A DNA stretch of 64,000 bases from Pseudomonadota bacterium. GTDB lineage: Bacteria > Pseudomonadota > Gammaproteobacteria > Burkholderiales > Thiobacillaceae. The translations under genes and the position numbers were made by a program. This document shows positions 5,013-29,283 of the stretch, one piece after another. The stretch covers positions 19,054 through 83,053 of the forward strand of contig JBFMHC010000015.1 of NCBI GenBank assembly GCA_040751755.1. Reading direction: 5' to 3'. Numbering within the stretch: the first letter of the stretch is position 1; each line of letters opens with the position of its first letter. Below the pieces are notes generated by a model. It worked only from the letters and a program-made list of their open reading frames with translations, did no database searches and was not told the DNA's origin.

Positions 5013-5594
5013 TCAGTCCAGGTCGCCCGCCAGGGAATCACGCACCGCGGCCGGCACCTGCACTGCCACCGCGTACTCGGCGTGGTCGATGCCGGCGGCG
5101 ATGCCTGCCCCCGCCTTCACCGCCGCGCGCATCGCCGGCGTCAGCTCGAAGCGCATGAAGTGGATGGAGGCGGTCTTGTCCTGGGCGCTGCGGTCGAGGT
5201 CCTCGTTGCACACGGGGCGGACCTTGTCGAAGCCGTCCACCCGCACCCACACCGCCTCCTCGATGCCGATCAGGCGCGCCAGGGCGGCGCGGCGCTCACG
5301 CTCGTCCGGATACTCCACCATGAAGGTGGCCTTCCAGTTGCCGCCGTCCGGGATCAGCGGGTTGTAGACGTCCAGCTCCTCCTGTATCGGCTCCGGCTCG
5401 AACATGCGTTCCAGGCGCAGCATCTCCTGCACCTGGTACTGCATGGTCAGCGCGTCCTCGAAGTAGAGCGCGGCGTGCTCGCCGAGGGCGACGCGGCGGT
5501 TCTTCTTGTGGGCGATGACGCGGGCGCGGAACTCGGGGCGCACGCGTGCGTATTGCTCCAGGCTGTAGAGGCTTTCGTGGCTCAGCTTTTCCAT
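5013..5594 (-). CDS. DUF3501 family protein
   Basis: 193 aa. MEKLSHESLYSLEQYARVRPEFRARVIAHKKNRRVALGEH... is typical of DUF3501. It is 11 nt downstream of the Fe-S protein gene. Confidence 0.7.
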   Translation of the reverse strand: MEKLSHESLYSLEQYARVRPEFRARVIAHKKNRRVALGEHAALYFEDALTMQYQVQEMLRLERMFEPEPIQEELDVYNPLIPDGGNWKATFMVEYPDERERRAALARLIGIEEAVWVRVDGFDKVRPVCNEDLDRSAQDKTASIHFMRFELTPAMRAAVKAGAGIAAGIDHAEYAVAVQVPAAVRDSLAGDLD

Positions 5595-5605: not shown

Positions 5606-6940
5606 TCAGATGCCGTAGGCCCTGCGCAGCAGGGTGATGGGGTGTTCCGGCCGGCTGCCGTCGCCTCGCGCATGGGCGATGTGGTGACCGGCCATGGCGC
5701 AGTCGCTGCCGTAGTGGTCCGGCTTTGCCTGATTCACCCGGTTCACCACGGGCTTCACGATCTTCATGGCGTACTGGTGGAACTCCTTCTTCACCGCATA
5801 GGTGCCGTCGTGGCCGGAACAGCGCTCGATGAACTCGATCTCCGTACCGGGTACCAGGGACAGGGTCTCCTTGGTCTTGGGGCCGATGTTCTGCACGCGC
5901 TGGTGGCAGGCGGCGTGATAGGCCACCTTGCCCAGCGGCTGCTTGAAGTCGGTATTCAGCTTACCCGCCTTGTAGCGCAGCATCAGGTACTCGAAGGGGT
6001 CGTAGAAGGCCTCCTTCACCTTACGCACGTCCGGGTCGTCGGGGAACATGAGCGGCAGTTCCTGCTTGAACATGAGCACGCAGGAGGGGATCAGGGCGGT
6101 GAGGTCCCAGCCCTCGTCCACCAGCCTGGCCAGGACGGGAATATTGGCCTCCTTGGCCTGGCGCACGGACTCCAGGTCGCCCAGTTCCAGCTTGGGCATA
6201 CCGCAGCAGCGCTCCTTCTCCGCCAGGGTGACGGGGATGCCGTTGTGCTCGAATACCGCCGCCAGGTCCTCGCCGGGCCCGGGTTCGTTGCGGTTCATGT
6301 AGCAGGTGGCGAACAGGGCGATCTTGCCCTTGGTCTCGCCCGCAGCCTCGCCGGGGGTGGCAGCGGGCAGCTTCTTCAGGCGGCTGCGCAGGGGATGGCT
6401 GGAAAACTCGGGCAGCCAGGCCTCGGCGGAAATTTCCGCCACGGCTTCCAGGGCCTTGCGCGCCGGGCCGACCCGGTTCACCGCGTTGACCACCTGCGCC
6501 ACCACGGGAATGCCGGCGAAGGCGCCGACCGCGTCGGTGCTGGTCAGCACCTTGTCGCGCAGCCTGGCGCCGTGATTCTTGAAGTGCACCGCCTTGGCAC
6601 GCAGCATCAGGTGCGGAAAGTCGAGGTTCCACTCGTGCGGTGGCACGTAGGGACACTTGGTCATGTAGCAGAGGTCGCAGAGGTAGCAGTGCTCGACCAC
6701 CTTCCAGTAATCCGTCTTCGCGACCCCCTCGACCTCCATGGACGCGGAGGCGTCCACCAGGTCGAACAGGGTGGGAAAGGACTGGCACAGCGACACGCAG
6801 CGGCGGCAGCCGTGGCAGATGTCGAACACCCGTTCCATCTCCTGGAACAGGGCGGCCTCATCGTGGAAATCGGGGTTTTGCCAATCGAGCGGGTGGCGGG
6901 TGGGGGCTTCCAGGTTGCCTTCGCGGATCGGGGTGGCCAT
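5606..6940 (-). CDS. HdrD/GlpC-like (Fe-S)-binding protein with CCG domains
   Basis: ATG at 6940. There are two 4Fe-4S motifs ([24 protein letters not shown]) and two CCG-type motifs ([15 protein letters not shown]). The upstream 107 codons of the track ORF run through an intergenic repeat and the rubrerythrin gene. Confidence 0.8.
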
Positions 6941-6985: not shown

Positions 6986-7034
6986 GCCCTCACCCTTTGC
7001 CTGGCCCTCCCCCCTCGAGGGGGAGGGGGAGAAC
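6986..7034. repeat. GC-hairpin + GGGTGAGGG repeat, intergenic copy (reverse orientation)
   Basis: CCCTCACCC (6987-6995), then a 9-nt spacer, then an imperfect C-rich/G-rich hairpin CCCTCCCCCCTCGAGGGGGAGGGGG (7005-7029). Same family as the copies at 18011-18052 and 27049-27164. Confidence 0.7.
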
Positions 7035-7035
7035 A

Positions 7036-7455
7036 TCAGGAGCCCAGTTCGTTCAGGGCCTTCTGATAGCGGTTGGCGTGCGAGCGCTCGGCCTTGGCCA
7101 GGGTCTCGAACCAGTCGGCGATCTCGTCGAAGCCTTCCTCGCGCGCGTCCTTGGCCATGCCCGGGTACATGTCGGTGTACTCGTGGGTCTCGCCGGCGAC
7201 GGCGGTCTTCAGGTTGTCGGCGGTGGCGCCGAAGGGCATGCCGGTGGCGGGATCGCCGCACTGCTCCAGATACTCCAGGTGGCCGTGCGCGTGGCCGGTC
7301 TCGCCCTCGGCGGTGGAACGGAACAGGGCGGCCACGTCGTTGTAGCCCTCGACGTCGGCCTTGGAGGCGAAGTACAGGTAACGGCGGTTGGCCTGCGACT
7401 CGCCCGCGAACGCGGCCTTCAGGTGGGCCTCGGTTTTGGAACCTTTCAGTTGCAT
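7036..7455 (-). CDS. rubrerythrin-family diiron protein without rubredoxin domain
   Basis: ATG at 7455 preceded by AGGAGG. 139 aa with paired E...ExxH motifs (AGES, EGETGH, AGETHE, AERSH). It has only one Cys, so there is no C-terminal rubredoxin CxxC pair. Confidence 0.85.
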
Positions 7456-7484
7456 GGTGGCACTCCTCCTTGTGTGGTCAGGGA

Positions 7485-7506
7485 CAATCACCCCGGGGGG
7501 TGATTG
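7485..7506. promoter_or_regulatory. 10-bp-arm palindrome in the rubrerythrin leader
   Basis: CAATCACCCC-GG-GGGGTGATTG, 30-50 nt upstream of the rubrerythrin ATG. Confidence 0.4.
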
Positions 7507-7541
7507 CATTCTTGGAAGGGCCGGCGGCTTTGTGAAATATG

Positions 7542-7568
7542 TTTTGGCTATGGGATCCATAGCCAAAA
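7542..7568. promoter_or_regulatory. 27-bp perfect palindrome (candidate operator)
   Basis: TTTTGGCTATGG-GAT-CCATAGCCAAAA with 12-bp perfect arms. It lies about 90-110 nt upstream of the rubrerythrin start and 18 nt after the DedA stop. No U-tract follows the stem on either strand. Confidence 0.4.
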
Positions 7569-16193: not shown

Positions 16194-19078
<2,885 letters not shown>

Positions 19079-19081
19079 GGC

Positions 19082-20773
19082 TTAAAAGTCGTTGCGGTTG
19101 CGCTTCGGGCCGTTGTGGCTGCGCTCGCCCCAGCTGTTGCCCTTCTTCCAGGCCGGCTTGTCCTGCGCCTGGCTGGCCCAGGTGTTGCCGTTGACGTCCG
19201 GGCGTTGGCGCTCCGGCTTGGGCATGACGTTGCCGTTCACCTCCGGACGCGCACGCTCCGGCTTGCCCCAGGTATTGCCGTTGACCTCGCCGCGGGCACG
19301 CTCGCCGCGCCCGCCCTCCGGACGCGACCAGGCGTTGTTGAAGCCGCCACGCTCGCCCGGACGGGATTCACCGCGATTCCCCTCGCCGCGGTTCCAGTTG
19401 CCACCTGCGCGGTTGCCGTCGCGGTTGCCATCACGGTTGCCGTCGCGGTTGAAGCGGCCCTCGCCGGGGCGCCCCTCACCCTTCCATCCACCGTAGCCCG
19501 CGCCATAGCCGGTCCCTTCGGGCTTGCGGCCGAAGCCGGAAGGCTGGCCGGCGCGCGGCCTGCCCTGCCATTCGCCGCGCGGCTTGCCCTTCCAGTCCGA
19601 GCTGGACTTGCGGCGCGGCTCGTGGTCGATGCGCGCCTTCGGCTCCAGGCCGGGGACCACGTCGATCTGGATCTTCTCGCCGGTGTAGCGCTCGATATCG
19701 CGCACCAGGCCGCGCTCCTTGCCGTGCACCAGGGTGAAGGCGATACCGGCACGGCCGGCGCGGCCGGTGCGACCGATGCGGTGCACGTAGTCCTCGGCCT
19801 GGCGCGGGATGTCGAAGTTGATGACGTGGCTGATGCCGGCCACGTCGATGCCGCGCGCGGCCACGTCGGTGGCCACCAGCACGCGCGTCTGGCCATCGCG
19901 CAGGCGCTGCAGGGTGCGGTTGCGTTTGTGCTGCGGCATGTCGCCGTGCAGGGCGGCGGCCGTGTACCCCTGCTCGAGCAGGCTCTCGGACAGTTCCTCG
20001 GCGCTGCGCTTGGTGGAGGTGAACACCACCGCCTGGGTCAGGCCCGCGTCGCGCAGCAGATGGTCGAGCAGGCGCTGCTTGTGGCCCATGTCGTCGACGA
20101 ACAGCAGGCGCTGGTCGATGTTGGCCTTGTGCTCGGCCTGGGTCACCACCTCGATGCGCTGCGGATCGCGCGTCATCTCGCGCGCCAGCTGGCCGACGGT
20201 GCCGTCCAGGGTGGCGGAGAACAACAGGGTCTGGCGCGACTCGGGGGTGCGGCCGACGATGTTCTCGATGTCCTCGATGAAGCCCATGTCGAGCATGCGG
20301 TCGGCCTCGTCCAGCACCAGCACCTCGAGGCGCGAGAAGTCGATGCGGCCGCGCTCCAGGTGGTCGATGAGACGGCCGGGGGTGGCGATCATCACCTCGG
20401 GGTTGGCCTTGAGGGCCTGGAACTGCGGGCCGAACGGCGCGCCGCCGACCAGGCAGGCGGTGCGCAGGCGCTTCAGGCCCTTGCCGTAGATGCGCGCCTG
20501 CTTCTCCACCTGCAGGGCCAGCTCGCGCGTGGGGCACAGCACCAGCAGGCGAGGACCGTTGCCGGGGAGCGTGGAGGGCTCGGCCAGCCGGTGCAGGCTG
20601 GGCAGCAGGAAGGCGGCGGTCTTGCCGCTGCCGGTGTGGCTGGAGACCAGCAGGTCCTGGCCGGCGATGGCGGCGGGGACCGACTGGCTTTGCACCTGGG
20701 TGGGGGTTTCGTAGCCCGCGGCCTCCACGGCGGAGAGAACGAGGGGATTCAGACCGAGTTCAGCAAAAGACAT
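19082..20773 (-). CDS. rhlE: DEAD-box ATP-dependent RNA helicase with a repetitive Arg/Gly/Asn-rich C-terminal tail
   Basis: ATG at 20773. Q-motif, GSGKT, DEAD (VLDEAD), SAT and HRIGRTGRAG are present. The N-terminus MSFAELGLNPLVLSAV resembles RhlE. The tail from about residue 400 is low-complexity. Confidence 0.9.
   Translation of the reverse strand: MSFAELGLNPLVLSAVEAAGYETPTQVQSQSVPAAIAGQDLLVSSHTGSGKTAAFLLPSLHRLAEPSTLPGNGPRLLVLCPTRELALQVEKQARIYGKGLKRLRTACLVGGAPFGPQFQALKANPEVMIATPGRLIDHLERGRIDFSRLEVLVLDEADRMLDMGFIEDIENIVGRTPESRQTLLFSATLDGTVGQLAREMTRDPQRIEVVTQAEHKANIDQRLLFVDDMGHKQRLLDHLLRDAGLTQAVVFTSTKRSAEELSESLLEQGYTAAALHGDMPQHKRNRTLQRLRDGQTRVLVATDVAARGIDVAGISHVINFDIPRQAEDYVHRIGRTGRAGRAGIAFTLVHGKERGLVRDIERYTGEKIQIDVVPGLEPKARIDHEPRRKSSSDWKGKPRGEWQGRPRAGQPSGFGRKPEGTGYGAGYGGWKGEGRPGEGRFNRDGNRDGNRDGNRAGGNWNRGEGNRGESRPGERGGFNNAWSRPEGGRGERARGEVNGNTWGKPERARPEVNGNVMPKPERQRPDVNGNTWASQAQDKPAWKKGNSWGERSHNGPKRNRNDF
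19178..19312. repeat. 3 x 45-nt tandem coding repeat in the helicase tail
   Basis: Units start at 19178, 19223 and 19268 (CCAGGTGTTGCCGTTGACGTCCGG...). On the minus strand they encode ER(A/Q)R(G/P)(E/D)VNGN(T/V)(W/M). Confidence 0.85.
19409..19456. repeat. 4 x 12-nt tandem coding repeat in the helicase tail
   Basis: GCGGTTGCCGTC / GCGGTTGCCATC / ACGGTTGCCGTC / GCGGTTGAAGCG. They encode NRDGNRDGNRDGNR on the minus strand. Confidence 0.85.
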
Positions 20774-24489: not shown

Positions 24490-25379
24490 TGTCCCTCTCC
24501 GTCGATCGCGGCACCACCCACGTACAGCACCACGTCGGCCACGACCATGGCGGCTCCGCCCTGGTCAAGGCCCTGTTCTTCACCCTCGGCTTCGCCGTCA
24601 TCGAGGCCGTGGCCGGCGTCTGGTCCGGCTCGCTCGCCCTGCTCTCCGACGCCGGACACATGGTCACCGACAGCATGGCCCTCGGGCTCGCCGCCCTCGC
24701 CGCCTGGCTGGCGCGCCGGCCGCCGTCGAACCGCCTCACCTACGGCCTGGTGCGCCTGGAGATTCTCGCGGCCCTGGTCAACAGCCTCGCCATGCTGGGC
24801 CTGATCACCTTCATCGTCGTCGAGGCCGTCGAGCGCCTGAGCCAGCCGCAGCCGGTGATGGGCGGCACGGTCATGGTGGTCGCCCTGATCGGCCTCCTGG
24901 TCAACCTCGCCGTGGCCTGGCTGCTGCACCACGGCGGCGACAGCCTCAACACCCGCGCCGCCTTCATGCACGTGCTGGGCGACCTGCTCGGCTCCATCGC
25001 CGCCCTGGTGGCGGGCGCGGTGATCTGGTTCACCGGCTACACCCCCATCGACCCCATCCTCTCCATGGTGGTGGCGGTCCTGATCCTGGTCTCCGCCAGC
25101 CGCCTGCTGTGGGAGAGCCTGCACGTGCTGATGGAAGGCGTGCCGCCGCATATCCAGCTGGAGGCGGTGGCGCAGGACATGGCCGAGGTGCCTGGCGTGT
25201 ATGTGGTGCACGATCTGCACGTCTGGACCCTGTCGTCCGGGCAGATCGCACTCTCCGCGCACCTGGAGCTCAACTCCTTCGACGACTGGGACCGCATCCT
25301 GCGCGCCACGCGCCAGCGCCTCGACGAGCGCCACGGCATCCGCCACGTCACCCTGCAACCCGAACTGAGACACCCATGA
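24486..25379 (+). CDS. cation diffusion facilitator (Zn/Co/Cd efflux) transporter
   Basis: His-rich N-terminus, then SLALLSDAGHMVTDS and HVLGDLLGS, which is the CDF signature. The start (GTG 24486 or ATG 24489) overlaps the nagZ stop. Confidence 0.9.
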   Translation: MMSLSVDRGTTHVQHHVGHDHGGSALVKALFFTLGFAVIEAVAGVWSGSLALLSDAGHMVTDSMALGLAALAAWLARRPPSNRLTYGLVRLEILAALVNSLAMLGLITFIVVEAVERLSQPQPVMGGTVMVVALIGLLVNLAVAWLLHHGGDSLNTRAAFMHVLGDLLGSIAALVAGAVIWFTGYTPIDPILSMVVAVLILVSASRLLWESLHVLMEGVPPHIQLEAVAQDMAEVPGVYVVHDLHVWTLSSGQIALSAHLELNSFDDWDRILRATRQRLDERHGIRHVTLQPELRHP

Positions 25380-26542
25380 ACCGCCGCCGCCCCCACGCCC
25401 GCCACCGACTCTCCCGCGACGCCGAGCGCCTGATCTGGCTCGCGCGCGGCCTCGCCGATTCCGGCAGCCGCCAGGAAGACGCCTACTGGGAGACCGAGCT
25501 GAACGGCCTGATCGCCAAGCTGCTGCAGGCCGACGACGACGACGCCCTCAACCTCGCGCTCGACCGCCTCAACGAGGCCACGCCGCCCACCCGCGCCTAC
25601 GAGGAACTCGCCGACCTGATCGAGGCCGCCTGCGAGGGCAGCCAGGCCGGCGACACCGCGCGCCTGTTCATCGCCCTGCCGGTGCTGGCATGGTCGCGCT
25701 ACGCCATCCCCACGCGCGCCATCCCCGCCGCCACCCTCGACGCCCTGCGCGCGCAGCTCGGCGCGCACGTCCTGGCGGACGGCGCGCGCGTGCACTTCGC
25801 CGACTACCTGTTCAGCCCCGACCAGCTGCCGCAGGGCTACGCCGCCACGCGCCAGCTCGCCGCCGAGCTGTGGCAGGCCGCCGCCGCCGGACGCGATCTC
25901 AAGGTGCCGGCCGCGCACTTGCCCGAGAGCCAGACCTTCGTCTCCGACGTGCGCTACCTGCTCGGCGTGGTGCAGGCCCCGGCCGGTGCGCCGCTGTTCC
26001 GCTGGAACGAGGTGGACGGCAGCCGCGAACAGGCCCTCGCCGCCTGGCGCGAGCAGGGCGGCGCCAACCTGCAGAAGCTGCTCACCGGCTGCGCCTACGA
26101 GCTGCTGCTGCCCGACGCCTACTTCGCCGCCTGGCGCCACGCCGACCAGGAGACCCGGCCGTTCTCGCTCAAGGCGGCGGTGGCCTACCTGCACACCCTG
26201 TTCGGCGTGCCGGTGTCGCACCTGCGCGCCGCCGCCGCACCCTATTACGACCGCGGCCTCGTCGAGTGGCGCATCGGCTTCAGCGTGCACGGCTCCGACC
26301 AGGTGGTGCACGGCGTCACCTGGCCGCTGCTCGGCCAGGACGACGAGTCCACGGACATCGCCGGGCAGATCGAGGCCATCCTCAAGGAGGCCGGCATGAG
26401 CGAGGTGACGTTCCTGGACACGCGCATGCCGCTGGAATATTGCGACGACTGCGGCGCCCCCCTGTTCCCCAGCAAGGAAGCGGAAAACGTGCACGCAGAG
26501 CTGCCGGAGGACATGCAGGAAGCCCCCGCGCACCTGCACTGA
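25376..26542 (+). CDS. DUF2863 family protein
   Basis: The ATG at 25376 overlaps the CDF stop. 388 aa (LSRDAERLIWLARGLADSGSRQEDAYWE... ending with the CDDCG motif). The family assignment is from memory. Confidence 0.6.
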   Translation: MNRRRPHARHRLSRDAERLIWLARGLADSGSRQEDAYWETELNGLIAKLLQADDDDALNLALDRLNEATPPTRAYEELADLIEAACEGSQAGDTARLFIALPVLAWSRYAIPTRAIPAATLDALRAQLGAHVLADGARVHFADYLFSPDQLPQGYAATRQLAAELWQAAAAGRDLKVPAAHLPESQTFVSDVRYLLGVVQAPAGAPLFRWNEVDGSREQALAAWREQGGANLQKLLTGCAYELLLPDAYFAAWRHADQETRPFSLKAAVAYLHTLFGVPVSHLRAAAAPYYDRGLVEWRIGFSVHGSDQVVHGVTWPLLGQDDESTDIAGQIEAILKEAGMSEVTFLDTRMPLEYCDDCGAPLFPSKEAENVHAELPEDMQEAPAHLH

Positions 26543-26547
26543 CGCGC

Positions 26548-27276
26548 ATGTCCCTGACCGACTGCACCGACTGCCCGCGCCTCGCCGCCTTCCTCGCCGA
26601 GGCGCGCGCCGCGCGGCCCGACTACTTCTGCCGCCCGGTGCCGGCCTTCGGCGACGCCGCGCCGCGCCTGCTGATCGTCGGCCTGGCGCCCGGCTTCCAC
26701 GGCGCCAACCGCAGCGGCCGGCCGTTCACCGGCGACTACGCGGGCGTGCTGCTGTACGAGACCCTGCACGCCTTCGGCTATGCCAGCCGGCCGGTCTCCA
26801 GCAGCGCCGACGACGGCCTGGAACTCATCGGCTGCCGCATCACCAACGCGGTGAAGTGCGTGCCGCCGGAGAATAAGCCGGAGACCGGCGAGATCCGCCA
26901 GTGCAACGGCTACCTCAAATCGGAATTGCAGGCCCTGCCCGCCGACGCGGCCATCCTCGCCCTCGGCCAGATCGCCCACAAGGCGGTGCTGATGGCCCTG
27001 GGGCTGAAGCAGGGCGCCTACGTCTTCGGCCACGGCGCGGCACACCTGCTCCCTCTCCCACCGGGAGAGGGCCGGGGTGAGGGAACAACGCCTGATCGCG
27101 CGGAACCGCAAAGACAACCGCGGCTCCCTCACCCCCAGCCCCTCCCCCGGGGGGGGAGGGGAGCAGGTATACGCCTGTACGACAGCTACCACTGCTCGCG
27201 CTACAACACCCAGACCAGGCGCCTCACGCCGGAGATGTTCCGCGCCGTCTTTCAACGCATCCGAGAGGAAAACTAG
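26548..27276 (+). CDS. uracil-DNA glycosylase superfamily protein (family 4/5-like) carrying a repeat-encoded insert
   Basis: Motif A is LLIVGLAPGFHGANRSGRPFTGD and motif B is DSYHCSRYNTQTRRLT. About 40 extra codons between FGHGAAH and GIRLYDSYH are encoded by the repeat at 27049-27164. Confidence 0.8.
   Translation: MSLTDCTDCPRLAAFLAEARAARPDYFCRPVPAFGDAAPRLLIVGLAPGFHGANRSGRPFTGDYAGVLLYETLHAFGYASRPVSSSADDGLELIGCRITNAVKCVPPENKPETGEIRQCNGYLKSELQALPADAAILALGQIAHKAVLMALGLKQGAYVFGHGAAHLLPLPPGEGRGEGTTPDRAEPQRQPRLPHPQPLPRGGRGAGIRLYDSYHCSRYNTQTRRLTPEMFRAVFQRIREEN
27049..27164. repeat. inverted doublet of the GC-hairpin + GGGTGAGGG repeat (MITE/REP-doublet-like)
   Basis: Left half: CCCTCTCCC-ACC-GGGAGAGGG (27051-27071) plus GGGGTGAGGGA (27074-27084). 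A spacer of about 40 nt follows. Right half: TCCCTCACCCC (27125-27135) plus CCCCTCCCCC-GGG-GGGGGAGGGG (27139-27161). Confidence 0.8.
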
Positions 27277-27465
27277 ATGCCCGTCATCACCATCAAGCTC
27301 GCCGGCAGCCTGACGCGCGACCAGAAGAAGAAGATCGCCGAGGAGATCACCGAGACCATGGAGCGCCACGCCCTCAAGCCGCGGCGCTACACCTATATCG
27401 CCTTCGAGGAGCTGCCGGACGAGAACTGGGCGATCGCCGGCCAGCTGCTGGACGAGGAAGACTGA
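27277..27465 (+). CDS. 4-oxalocrotonate tautomerase family enzyme
   Basis: 62 aa, MPVITIKLAG...; Pro-1 follows the Met and the beta-alpha-beta size is right. The start abuts the UDG stop (TAGATG). Confidence 0.85.
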   Translation: MPVITIKLAGSLTRDQKKKIAEEITETMERHALKPRRYTYIAFEELPDENWAIAGQLLDEED

Positions 27466-27477
27466 CGCACTGAACAC

Positions 27478-29283
27478 GTGGCCGAAGCCGCCTTCGACGC
27501 CAAGGCCTTCCTGGCCACCCTGCCCGGCCTTCCCGGGGTCTACCGCATGCTCGGCGAGGGCGGCGCGGTGCTCTACGTGGGCAAGGCCAAGGACCTGAAG
27601 AAGCGGGTCTCCAGCTACTTCCAGAAGACCGACCTCTCGCCGCGCATCCGCCACATGGTGGCGCGCATCCAGGACATCCAGATCACCGTCACCCGCACCG
27701 AGGCCGAGGCCCTGCTGCTGGAGAACAACCTGATCAAGGGCCTGGCGCCCAAGTACAACATCCTGTTCCGGGACGACAAGTCCTACCCCTACCTGCTGCT
27801 CTCGGGCCACGAATACCCAAGACTTGGCTTCTTCCGCGGCACGCCGGACAAGCGCCACCGCGTGTTCGGCCCCTTCCCCAACTCGCTGGCGGTGCGCGAG
27901 AGCATCCAGATCCTGCAGAAGGTGTTCCGCCTGCGCACCTGCGAGGACACGGTGTTCAGCAACCGCTCCCGCCCCTGCCTGCTGCACCAGATCAAGCGCT
28001 GCAGCGGACCCTGCGTGGGCCTGGTGAGCGCCGGGGACTACGCGCGCGACGTCGAGGACGCGCTCCTGTTCCTGCAGGGCAAGGACAGCGAGGTGATCGA
28101 TGCGCTCACCGCGCGCATGAACGCCGCCGCCGAGGCGTGGCAGTTCGAGGCGGCGGCCTTCTGGCGCGACCAGATCAACGCCCTGGCCAAGGTGCGCGCG
28201 CAGCAGTTCGTGGAGAGCCGCTCCGCGCAGGACGCGGACATCGTCGCCGCCGTCCTGGCGGGCGGCGTTGCCTGCGTCTACCTGGTGATGGTGCGCGGCG
28301 GGCGCAACCTGGGCGGGCGCGCCTTCTTCCCCGCCCATGCCGAGGGCGCGGACGCCGCCAGCCTGCTCGAGGCCTTCGCCGGCCAGCACTACGAGGGCCG
28401 CCCCATTCCCGCCACGCTGATCCTCAACGAGGAGGTGGAGGGCCTCGCGGACTGGCTCTCGGAACAGGCGGAGCGGCGCGTGCAGGTCGTCACCCGGCCG
28501 CAGGGCGAGCGCCGCGTCTGGCTGGAGATGGCGGAGAAGAACGCGCAACTGGCCCTGGCCACGCGCGAGGGCCAGCGCGAGAACCAGAACGCGCGCCTGG
28601 CCGCCCTCAACGAGGCCCTGGGCGAGGAAGGAGGCATCGCCCGCATCGAGTGCTTCGACGTCAGCCACACCATGGGCGAGGCGACGGTGGTGTCGTGCGT
28701 GGTGTTCGACCAGGGCGCCATGCAGTCGGGCGAATACCGGCGCTACAACGTTTCGGGCATCACCCCCGGCGACGACTACGCCGCCATGCGCGACGCCCTC
28801 TCGCGCCGCTACGGCAAGCTCGCCGCCGGCGAGGGCAGGCTGCCCGACCTGCTGCTGATCGACGGCGGCAAGGGGCAGTTGCACATGGCCGTCGACGTGC
28901 TGTCGGAACTGGGGCTGGGCAACCTGCCCATGGTCGGCGTGGCCAAGGGCGTGGAACGCAAGCCCGGCATGGAACAGCTGTTCCTGCCCGGCGAGGTGGA
29001 GCCGCTGCGCCTGCCCGCCGACCACCCCGCCCTGCACCTGATCCAACAGGTGCGCGACGAGGCGCACCGCTTCGCCATCACCGGCCACCGCGCGCGCCGC
29101 GGCAAGGCACGCACCCAATCGAGCCTGGAGGACATCCCCGGCATCGGCGCGAAGCGGCGGCAGAAGCTGCTGCAGGCCTTCGGCGGCCTGCGCGGCGTGG
29201 TCGACGCGGGCGTGGAGGAATTGGCACAGGTGGAGGGGATCAGCCGCGATCTCGCCGAGCGCATCTATCGTGAGCTGCATTAA
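27478..29283 (+). CDS. uvrC: excinuclease ABC subunit C
   Basis: GIY-YIG domain ([29 protein letters not shown]), UVR domain, and the C-terminal (HhH)2 [19 protein letters not shown] start. Confidence 0.95.

Follow-up and report, generated by a model that had tools for sequence, protein, structure and literature searches.

The stretch of DNA studied here (the window: 64,000 nt of a Pseudomonadota genome, contig JBFMHC010000015.1, positions 19,054 to 83,053) carries an inverted pair of palindromic repeats in frame inside the gene of a family-5 (UDGb-type) uracil-DNA glycosylase (UDG). By its sequence, the repeat is a member of the family known as BoxC, PIT or TMECO. Very probably, the pair was copied into the codons of a β-hairpin turn of the enzyme, where it is carried as a nucleic-acid passenger that the protein tolerates, and this turn is a hot-spot at which such inserts turn over fast. 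Coordinates are those of the window unless a locus number precedes them.

The repeat pair and its family

The whole doublet spans 27044-27168 (no strand assigned), as delimited by its outer arms, by folding and by the alignment of filled with empty alleles. Its first hairpin (27051-27071) is CCCTCTCCC-ACC-GGGAGAGGG, with a 9-bp stem and a 3-nt loop, and has GGGGTGAGGGA (27074-27084) on its 3' side. Positions 27125-27135 hold the latter's exact reverse complement, TCCCTCACCCC, ahead of a second hairpin (27139-27161), CCCCTCCCCC-GGG-GGGGGAGGGG, whose 10-bp stem is perfect. Both hairpins were read from the sequence and agree with the repeat search, which also returned outer inverted arms of 22 nt (27044-27065 and 27147-27168; 77% complementary). 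A preliminary description of this DNA had placed such a doublet at 27049-27164, inside an open reading frame (ORF; 26548-27276) that it does not break; the sequences, the coordinates and the quoted translation all proved correct.

The published pattern of the family is CCCTCNCCC-N3-6-GGGNGAGGG-N3-GGGNGAGGG (Holder et al., 2015; PMC4666352). Pattern matching identified one exact unit on the plus strand, unit A (27051-27083), which fits base for base and consists of a C-rich arm, the loop ACC, a G-rich arm, the second loop CCG of 'type B' and the third strand GGGTGAGGG. By inspection, setting GGGAGAGGG against the reversed GGGTGAGGG gives 9/9 triads that a purine-motif triplex permits (G·G:C, A·A:T, T·A:T). 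A 40-nt spacer (27085-27124, no strand; translated as ..TTPDRAEPQRQPR..) separates it from unit B on the minus strand (27126-27161), which was identified from the sequence, the repeat search and a relaxed scan for a hairpin with a G-rich third strand. Unit B is a variant with 10-nt stems (CCCCTCCCCC / GGGGGAGGGG), the third strand GGGGGTGAGGG and a second loop of 5 nt, not 3, which puts it outside the strict pattern. The relaxed scan found 4 units at 3 loci in the 64 kb, against 0.05 in shuffled sequences, the other two being units C and D described below. Because of their stem and loop lengths, units B, C and D do not match the strict pattern and are treated as variants; B and C have one mismatched triad each, comparable to the 'mm' types in Holder's Table 1 (PMC4666352), and both read GCTCCCCTCCCCC-nnn-GGGGGAGGGG-CT-GGGGGTGAGGGA, the loop being their sole difference. 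Across the window the published pattern has a single match (unit A) where shuffles gave 0.00, and GGGTGAGGG is counted 5 times against 1.1 expected, a number reached in 0/100 shuffles.

E. coli BoxC (a name from the 1990s), the PIT element and TMECO, the 'intrastrand triplex motif', are names for one family (Hoyne, Maher and co-workers, 2000; Holder et al., 2015). In 262 proteobacterial genomes 3610 copies have been counted, and E. coli K-12 holds 23, every one intergenic and five as inverted pairs (PMC4666352). The triplex has been seen in vitro on isolated single strands by circular dichroism and nuclear magnetic resonance, with none stable or detected in vivo; no promoter, terminator or regulatory activity was found for the E. 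coli motifs, nor any link of the motif to mobile elements (PMC4666352). A transposase is not known for the family. Its loci are markedly unstable, with frequent deletion and a tendency of inverted pairs to collapse into a single hairpin (PMC4666352). The window units share with the family an interspersed, multi-copy occurrence, both single and as an inverted pair (three loci, one pair). They do not share the intergenic location, as the copies in the UDG gene and in tgt lie in frame inside ORFs; that location is a property reported for E. coli and stands outside the definition of the motif. Rfam, searched with 26900-27300 at a permissive cut-off, assigned no family; the matches were miRNA-like hairpins, all below threshold.

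As a single strand the doublet forms one long hairpin of ~45 bp, its minimum free energy (MFE) structure pairing 27044-27084 with 27125-27168. The RNA MFE is -90.5 kcal/mol (z = -7.1) and the DNA MFE -46.5 kcal/mol (z = -6.4), both calculated with ViennaRNA without triplexes. The G-rich half of each unit contains four G-tracts. Stop codons are absent from 5/6 reading frames of a unit, so that survival in frame inside genes is easy.

The insert and its site in the glycosylase

Relative to the empty orthologue of a Thiobacillus sp. (L002), the window gene has gained a net 108 nt, or 36 codons, in frame at the β-hairpin turn H-x-L-P/x-G of UDGb (the slash marks the point of insertion). L002 reads CAT GCA CTG CCT TCA GGC CAT AGG CTG, where the window has CAC CTG CTC CCT, the 108 nt and GCA GGT ATA CGC CTG. 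An extra segment of about 40 codons had been noted previously; it is real when set against the short turn of orthologues and of Thermus, and its size against L002 is 36 codons. The Thermus enzyme (2D3Y) reads ...FRHGAHYPLPGGRHLLASYH... here (turn HYPLPGGRHLL), and residues 169-206 of the window protein are without counterpart in it. The insert stands eight residues ahead of the catalytic His motif (36 residues, then 8). No direct repeat flanks either candidate boundary, hence no target-site duplication, and the likeness of the native CTG-CC...CAGG to the ends of the element, CTGCTCCC...GGGAGCAGG, blurs the borders.

The same site is filled by a doublet in L001, a 3-kb metagenome contig from an independent sample, which rules out an assembly artefact. 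One metagenome sample, ERZ27248703, contains L001 together with an empty allele, L003. At a synonymous divergence (dS) of 0.56 between window and L001, the frame is kept in both. Unit A is identical at 36/37 nt and hairpin B at 22/23, compared with 66% at third positions of the core, while the spacers align without gaps at 23/40 identical nt and encode different peptides (TTPDRAEPQRQPR vs ATADQGQPRRRAP). The ratio of nonsynonymous to synonymous substitution rates (dN/dS; Nei-Gojobori) of the insert is 0.77 between these two sequences. For the core it is 0.24 between the window and L001 (both filled), 0.20 between L001 and the empty L002, and 0.31 between the window and L002. What is conserved is, judged from these comparisons, the DNA repeats, at a level far above that of synonymous sites, while the insert peptide drifts almost neutrally. 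Either a nucleic-acid structure (DNA or RNA) would be under selection, or the units would be homogenised against other genomic copies. The preliminary description had also raised the question of whether close orthologues share an insert of equal length and similar sequence in genomes otherwise free of the repeat; L001, known from 3 kb, has such an insert, and L002 is empty.

The host gene (26548-27276, plus strand) encodes 242 aa and is open across the doublet. Its product matches the Pfam family UDG (PF03167; 1.7e-25), and the closest sequence in the PDB is 2d3y, the T. thermophilus UDGb (6.4e-48), which is also the top fold match of the model (target-normalised TM-score 0.77, 43% identity). 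It is identical to P0001, a protein of a Pseudomonadota metagenome-assembled genome (MAG) that bears the NCBI name uracil-DNA glycosylase. Motif 1 is of the GLAPG type (residues 45-49) without the Glu of family 4. C6, C9, C104, C119, N109 and H215 are invariant in an alignment of orthologues (A1), and the four Cys align with the Fe-S ligands of the Thermus enzyme. Asn109 and His215 align with Asn120 and His190 of TthUDGb, which we take to be catalytic. By fold, GLAPG motif 1, motif 2 His and the four [4Fe-4S] Cys, the protein is a family-5 UDG, sharing these features with 2D3Y and differing from it by 36 more residues in the turn, which is PLPGG in Thermus. With the core under purifying selection and the catalytic and Fe-S residues kept, the gene is, on this evidence, alive.

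An AlphaFold2 model of the protein has a mean predicted local distance difference test score (pLDDT) of 76, and residues 174-203, between strands 165-168 and 208-213, fall below 50. The insert-encoded segment, rich in Pro, Gly, Glu and Arg, is modelled as a loop of low confidence that joins the two strands. The HCSRYN motif, which is catalytic, lies at the C-terminal end of strand 208-213, and the turn at its N-terminal end would therefore lie across the sheet from the active site.

The neighbours of the gene are a DUF2863 gene, a 4-oxalocrotonate-tautomerase-like gene and uvrC. The order DUF2863, UDG, 62-aa tautomerase (25376-29283) is kept in L002, L004, L205, L206, L208 and L209; in these Betaproteobacteria-like contigs uvrC is next or a few genes further on, and it was not seen in the short L208 locus. 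The TAG stop of the UDG gene directly abuts the ATG of the tautomerase gene (27274-27279), an arrangement that suggests co-translation.

Occupation of the turn among orthologues

Among the 120 best orthologues (P0001-P0120; mostly 208-216 aa), 33 are filled at exactly this turn, with inserts of 4 to about 40 residues. In the filled alleles the C-rich arm is read LP(S/L)P and is followed by G-rich codons ending in GEG, in a common orientation and frame. The background state, as found in a metagenome scan, is empty (~70/80 orthologues). Fitch parsimony on neighbour-joining (NJ) trees, with the insert masked and 12 bootstraps, gave 13-17 state changes, and in these trees the filled P0002 pairs with P0012 and P0026, both empty, and not with the window protein. 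The turn holds intact units in L126, L205, L207 and L208; the DNA recovered for these loci and for L210 has intact or lightly decayed units with differing stem variants (CCCTCTCCC vs CCCCTCCCC). In L208 (2004-2075), a Sulfuritortus-type UDG (P0023), the unit at the turn has the third strand GGGGTGAGGGAAAA twice, and the site of its close relative P0074 (L209) is empty. The P0014-type UDGs of L004 (3514-3545) have a bare hairpin with a 12-bp stem, GCTCCCTCTCCC-CCC-GGGAGAGGGAGC, read as the peptide LPLPPGEG, which matches the collapse of pairs into hairpins described for E. coli BoxC (PMC4666352). About 370 kb of unselected UDG loci contain two units in total, one of them in the UDGb turn.

The grouping of L001 changes locally. 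Informative sites in the 5' part of the gene place it with the empty L002 (57:13:21), whereas those in the two 15-nt flanks of the insert place it with the window (7:2:1), and about 10-15 nt per side co-vary with the insert. The switch therefore points to an inserted or converted tract of ~130 nt that was acquired locally. Many gains, one ancient gain with many losses, and lateral conversion may all be considered for this distribution; we favour repeated turnover. The gene looks mosaic across the three loci (26548-27276; L001 2142-2900; L002 3001-3651), the last ~60 nt of L001 grouping with neither of the others, and this pattern suggests recombination among related lineages. The contig of L162, with a 71%-identical UDG, stops exactly at the insertion site (2120-2133, …HGHAHTL), and that of L197 stops a few bases further on, in an empty site; the end of L162 may be an assembly break at a repeat, which is only suggestive.

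Copies elsewhere in the window and in other genomes

Further copies of the motif, anticipated in the preliminary description, are present in the window. Unit C (18012-18048, plus strand; relaxed scan) occupies tgt (ORF 17402-18595, minus strand) without breaking its frame, in an insert of 28 residues (177-204) that is unmatched in E. coli Tgt (10fb); the Pfam TGT domain runs across this insert. Unit D (6987-7028, minus strand; relaxed scan) is intergenic: a rubrerythrin-like ORF (7036-7566, minus strand) stops 8 nt ahead of it, and the next gene starts 47 nt beyond it, with its ATG at 6940, a placing that is classical for such repeats. One GGGTGAGGG, at 19473, lacks a hairpin to go with it and is regarded as a chance occurrence; near it, a G/C-rich, coding-looking stretch contains a 12-nt tandem repeat, CGCGGTTGCCGT, in 3.7 copies (19408-19451).

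A scan of 185,579 species genomes for the paired architecture, GGGGTGAGGG-N28-55-CCCTCACCCC, returned at least 119 loci; among the matches listed, nearly all have a CCCTCTCCC-loop-GGGAGAGGG hairpin on both outer sides, and the hosts include Alpha-, Beta- and Gammaproteobacteria, Planctomycetota, Chloroflexota, Myxococcota, Geomonas and Armatimonadota. The spacers of the window and L001, compared with 127 doublet spacers of other genomes, showed no similarity beyond that of shuffled controls. Spacers are alike within some lineages (Cupriavidus and one Planctomycetota MAG) and unrelated between genomes, which speaks against the doublet as one conserved mobile element with a common spacer. In the MAG of a Pirellulales member (L026), doublet and spacer are repeated in tandem (5152-5213 and 5278-5339, period 126 nt) upstream of a radical-SAM / KamA-like ORF, with further unit-like sequence still more upstream.

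In-frame pairs were sought by flanking Pfam domains among the 127 doublets from other genomes. One lies in a valyl-tRNA synthetase (ValRS), between the catalytic and anticodon-binding domains (L101 7046-7183), and its insert begins with LPLPPGEGRGEGTT, as does that of the window UDG; with a G+C content of 61% vs 68% for the window and no other shared 20-mers of note, L101 is from a different organism. Others were found in the isoleucyl-tRNA synthetase (IleRS) of Sphingomonas (L067 282-381), in the lipoyl-E3 linker of Lpd from Dyella (L078 1673-1791), in an E2 acyltransferase linker (L059 7319-7418), in an OHCU-decarboxylase/M20 amidohydrolase (L107 5122-5221) and in a Planctomycetota protein with an HZS_alpha domain (L114 5104-5205).

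Comparison with known repeat systems

The UDG repeat resembles E. coli BoxC/PIT/TMECO in its purine-triplex-compatible arms and third strand, in being interspersed, single or paired and at unstable loci, and in that no transposase or target-site duplication was seen. It departs from the E. coli picture in that 2/3 loci in the 64 kb are intragenic and in frame, against 23/23 intergenic in E. coli, and in the 10-nt stems and longer second loop of units B, C and D. The architecture also extends beyond the 262 proteobacterial genomes of Holder et al. (2015), to Planctomycetota, Chloroflexota, Myxococcota and Armatimonadota. Neither the full-text literature search nor PMC4666352 yielded a report of BoxC/PIT/TMECO inside coding sequence or at a recurrent site.

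Other palindromic repeats are known inside genes. Rickettsia palindromic elements (RPE) sit in frame in housekeeping genes that are apparently functional, their peptide being an add-on loop (cited in PMC3733652). The UDG insert is comparable to them by description, as an in-frame palindrome read as an added loop, but RPE are an unrelated family found only in Rickettsia, with no triplex-type third strand described. Intragenic repetitive extragenic palindromes (REPs) of the GTAG/CGTC type are numerous in genes for DNA repair, tRNA synthetases and tRNA modification, where dimers encode 20-30 residues (Di Nocera et al., 2013; PMC3733652); the hosts of the present repeat, UDG and tgt in the window as well as ValRS and IleRS in other genomes, parallel these classes. 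The recB genes of two Xanthomonas species carry REPs at about one site (Di Nocera et al., 2013; PMC3733652), a precedent for a recurrent site. REPINs are inverted REP dimers that form one long hairpin (Bertels and Rainey, 2011; PMC3116915), and the UDG doublet is likewise made of two inverted units with a single long hairpin.

The GTAG or CGTC tag is, however, absent from units A, B and D, and the GTAG that stands 3 nt upstream of unit C only looks like chance; identity with GTAG/CGTC REPs is ruled out on the missing tag. No gene for a REP-associated tyrosine transposase (RAYT) was identified in the window, whose ORFs were not scanned for Y1 transposases. REP/RAYT systems are lineage-specific, unlike the present family, which occurs in many phyla. 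A miniature inverted-repeat transposable element (MITE) is ruled out as well, as inverted ends are present but a target-site duplication is not. The doublet had been likened to MITE or REP doublets before this analysis; the inverted doublet of an interspersed palindromic repeat stands, and its name becomes BoxC/PIT/TMECO, lacking both the duplication and the tag.

Competing explanations

In the account that we consider very probable, a pair of BoxC/PIT/TMECO units would have been copied into the codons of the H-x-L-P/x-G turn. The insert would be a passenger at the nucleic-acid level, tolerated by the protein and not a domesticated loop, and the thing maintained would be a DNA (or RNA) structure, or units kept alike by homogenisation against other genomic copies. 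Gains may be favoured at this turn because its native codons, CTN-CCN...GGN, resemble the base of the repeat stem, and because it would sit at the sheet end remote from the active site; losses would take place by slippage across the palindrome and leave collapsed hairpins such as that of L004. The idea of a selfish palindrome tolerated as a protein loop, put forward in the preliminary description, fits the core dN/dS of 0.2-0.3, the low-confidence loop and the insert dN/dS of 0.77. Several points weigh against this account. Copy number and intragenic share rest on 64 kb of genome, and no second copy of the UDG doublet with its spacer was found, so that mobility of the pair is unsupported. The number of events in the turn is approximate, the NJ trees being built on 200 columns and weakly resolved; purifying selection was measured between pairs of lineages, not for the window lineage alone; and strand topology is the basis for setting the turn apart from the active site. 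The microhomology proposed for the hot-spot may also be forced simply by the amino acids L-P...G.

Whether the turn is a genuine preferred target is more doubtful. We hold it unlikely that the family spreads by templated copying into 'proto-sites' (CTS-CCN ... GGN), directed by structure or microhomology and needing no transposase. A 'proto-site' sequence, forced here by the residues L-P-x-G, would mimic the base of the repeat stem.

A comparably low probability attaches to a single insertion of a unit or pair in an ancestor of these Betaproteobacteria, followed by vertical descent, with precise losses and partial decay producing the patchiness. Every filled allele has a common orientation and reading frame, the deepest NJ clades are almost all filled, the spacers of window and L001 align ungapped (23/40), and deletion of the motif is reported as frequent (Holder et al., 2015; PMC4666352), all of which would suit such a history. 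But the Thermus UDGb and ~70/80 of the more distant orthologues are empty, a history of loss only requires 24-33 separate empty clades, and the motifs are intact in lineages with near-saturated synonymous sites. The alleles also differ in stem variant (CCCTCTCCC vs CCCCTCCCC), and L001 groups with the window near the insert and with L002 elsewhere, which looks like local acquisition or a conversion tract. Less probable still is a function at this locus, in which hairpin, triplex or G-quadruplex-prone DNA would be selected to modulate translation, mRNA stability or replication of the UDG-tautomerase-uvrC cluster. The insert is missing in close relatives with identical gene order, and neither promoter, terminator or regulatory activity nor a stable in-vivo triplex was found for the E. 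coli motifs (PMC4666352); the conservation of the repeat arms far above synonymous-site level speaks for such a function, as do the very stable fold (z = -7.1) and the four G-tracts in the G-rich half of each unit, but gene conversion with other copies could give equal conservation.

The three remaining explanations are improbable to a still higher degree. That the 36 Pro/Gly-rich residues form a functional loop, for example a partner-binding or DNA-contacting arm, we regard as very improbable: the frame is kept in two lineages at dS 0.56 and some insert is retained in many orthologues, yet dN/dS is 0.77 in the insert vs 0.24 in the core, the peptide read from the spacer has diverged (TTPDRAEPQRQPR vs ATADQGQPRRRAP), lengths range from 4 to about 40 residues with absence from close relatives, pLDDT is below 50 and conservation tracks the nucleotide repeat, not the codons. 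The suggestion of a domesticated loop in the earlier reading is accordingly hard to uphold, as the insert peptide evolves almost neutrally. Growth in situ, with the turn codons CCN CTN CCN GGN GGN expanded by fold-back or slipped synthesis and no imported copy, is given a similarly slight chance. Turns such as the Thermus PLPGG and the common LPGG/LPDG would be a C-run followed by a G-run in DNA, and short intermediates such as LPLPPGEG in L004 exist; Holder et al. (2015; PMC4666352), however, describe short forms as collapse products, unit B differs from unit C of tgt in the loop only, and unit A is the motif of E. coli and many phyla, with a third strand, GGGTGAGGG, that fold-back synthesis would not be expected to yield. 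Least credible of all is a pseudogene whose glycosylase activity was silently lost with the insertion and whose open frame is a relic, a possibility that had also been voiced at first. An insert of 36 residues eight residues ahead of the catalytic His motif, in DNA of 68% G+C where open frames persist easily, might invite it. Against it are the core dN/dS of 0.2-0.3 in comparisons with filled alleles, the conservation, past the insert, of the motif DSYHCSRYNTQT and of the C-terminal helix, the wide occurrence of in-frame filled alleles and the UDG stop that directly abuts the start of a conserved tautomerase gene. The functional gene does not end upstream of the insert.

Implications

The novelty is modest, as a known repeat family is found in a known context, that of in-frame palindromic inserts. 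What is new is the coding location of BoxC/PIT/TMECO, the recurrent, codon-defined site and the in-frame copies across phyla. The family has been known since the 1990s and is abundant and tied to genome instability; it has no accepted function or mechanism of spread and has been described as intergenic. Its in-frame hosts include essential or repair genes, namely UDG and tgt in the window and ValRS, IleRS, Lpd and E2 elsewhere, and in related bacteria a single β-turn of UDGb appears to have switched between filled and empty more than a dozen times. For annotators, P/G-rich peptides of this kind are to be read as repeat-encoded loops and not as novel domains or errors. The natural pairs of filled and empty alleles are a means to study how proteins tolerate inserts, and the UDGb turn is a defined site for the study of repeat gain and loss. 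If the turn were indeed a preferred target, it would be the first tractable system for the propagation and deletion of a 30-year-old orphan repeat family, with one codon-defined site, repeated orientation- and frame-specific occupation, and empty and filled alleles in close relatives.

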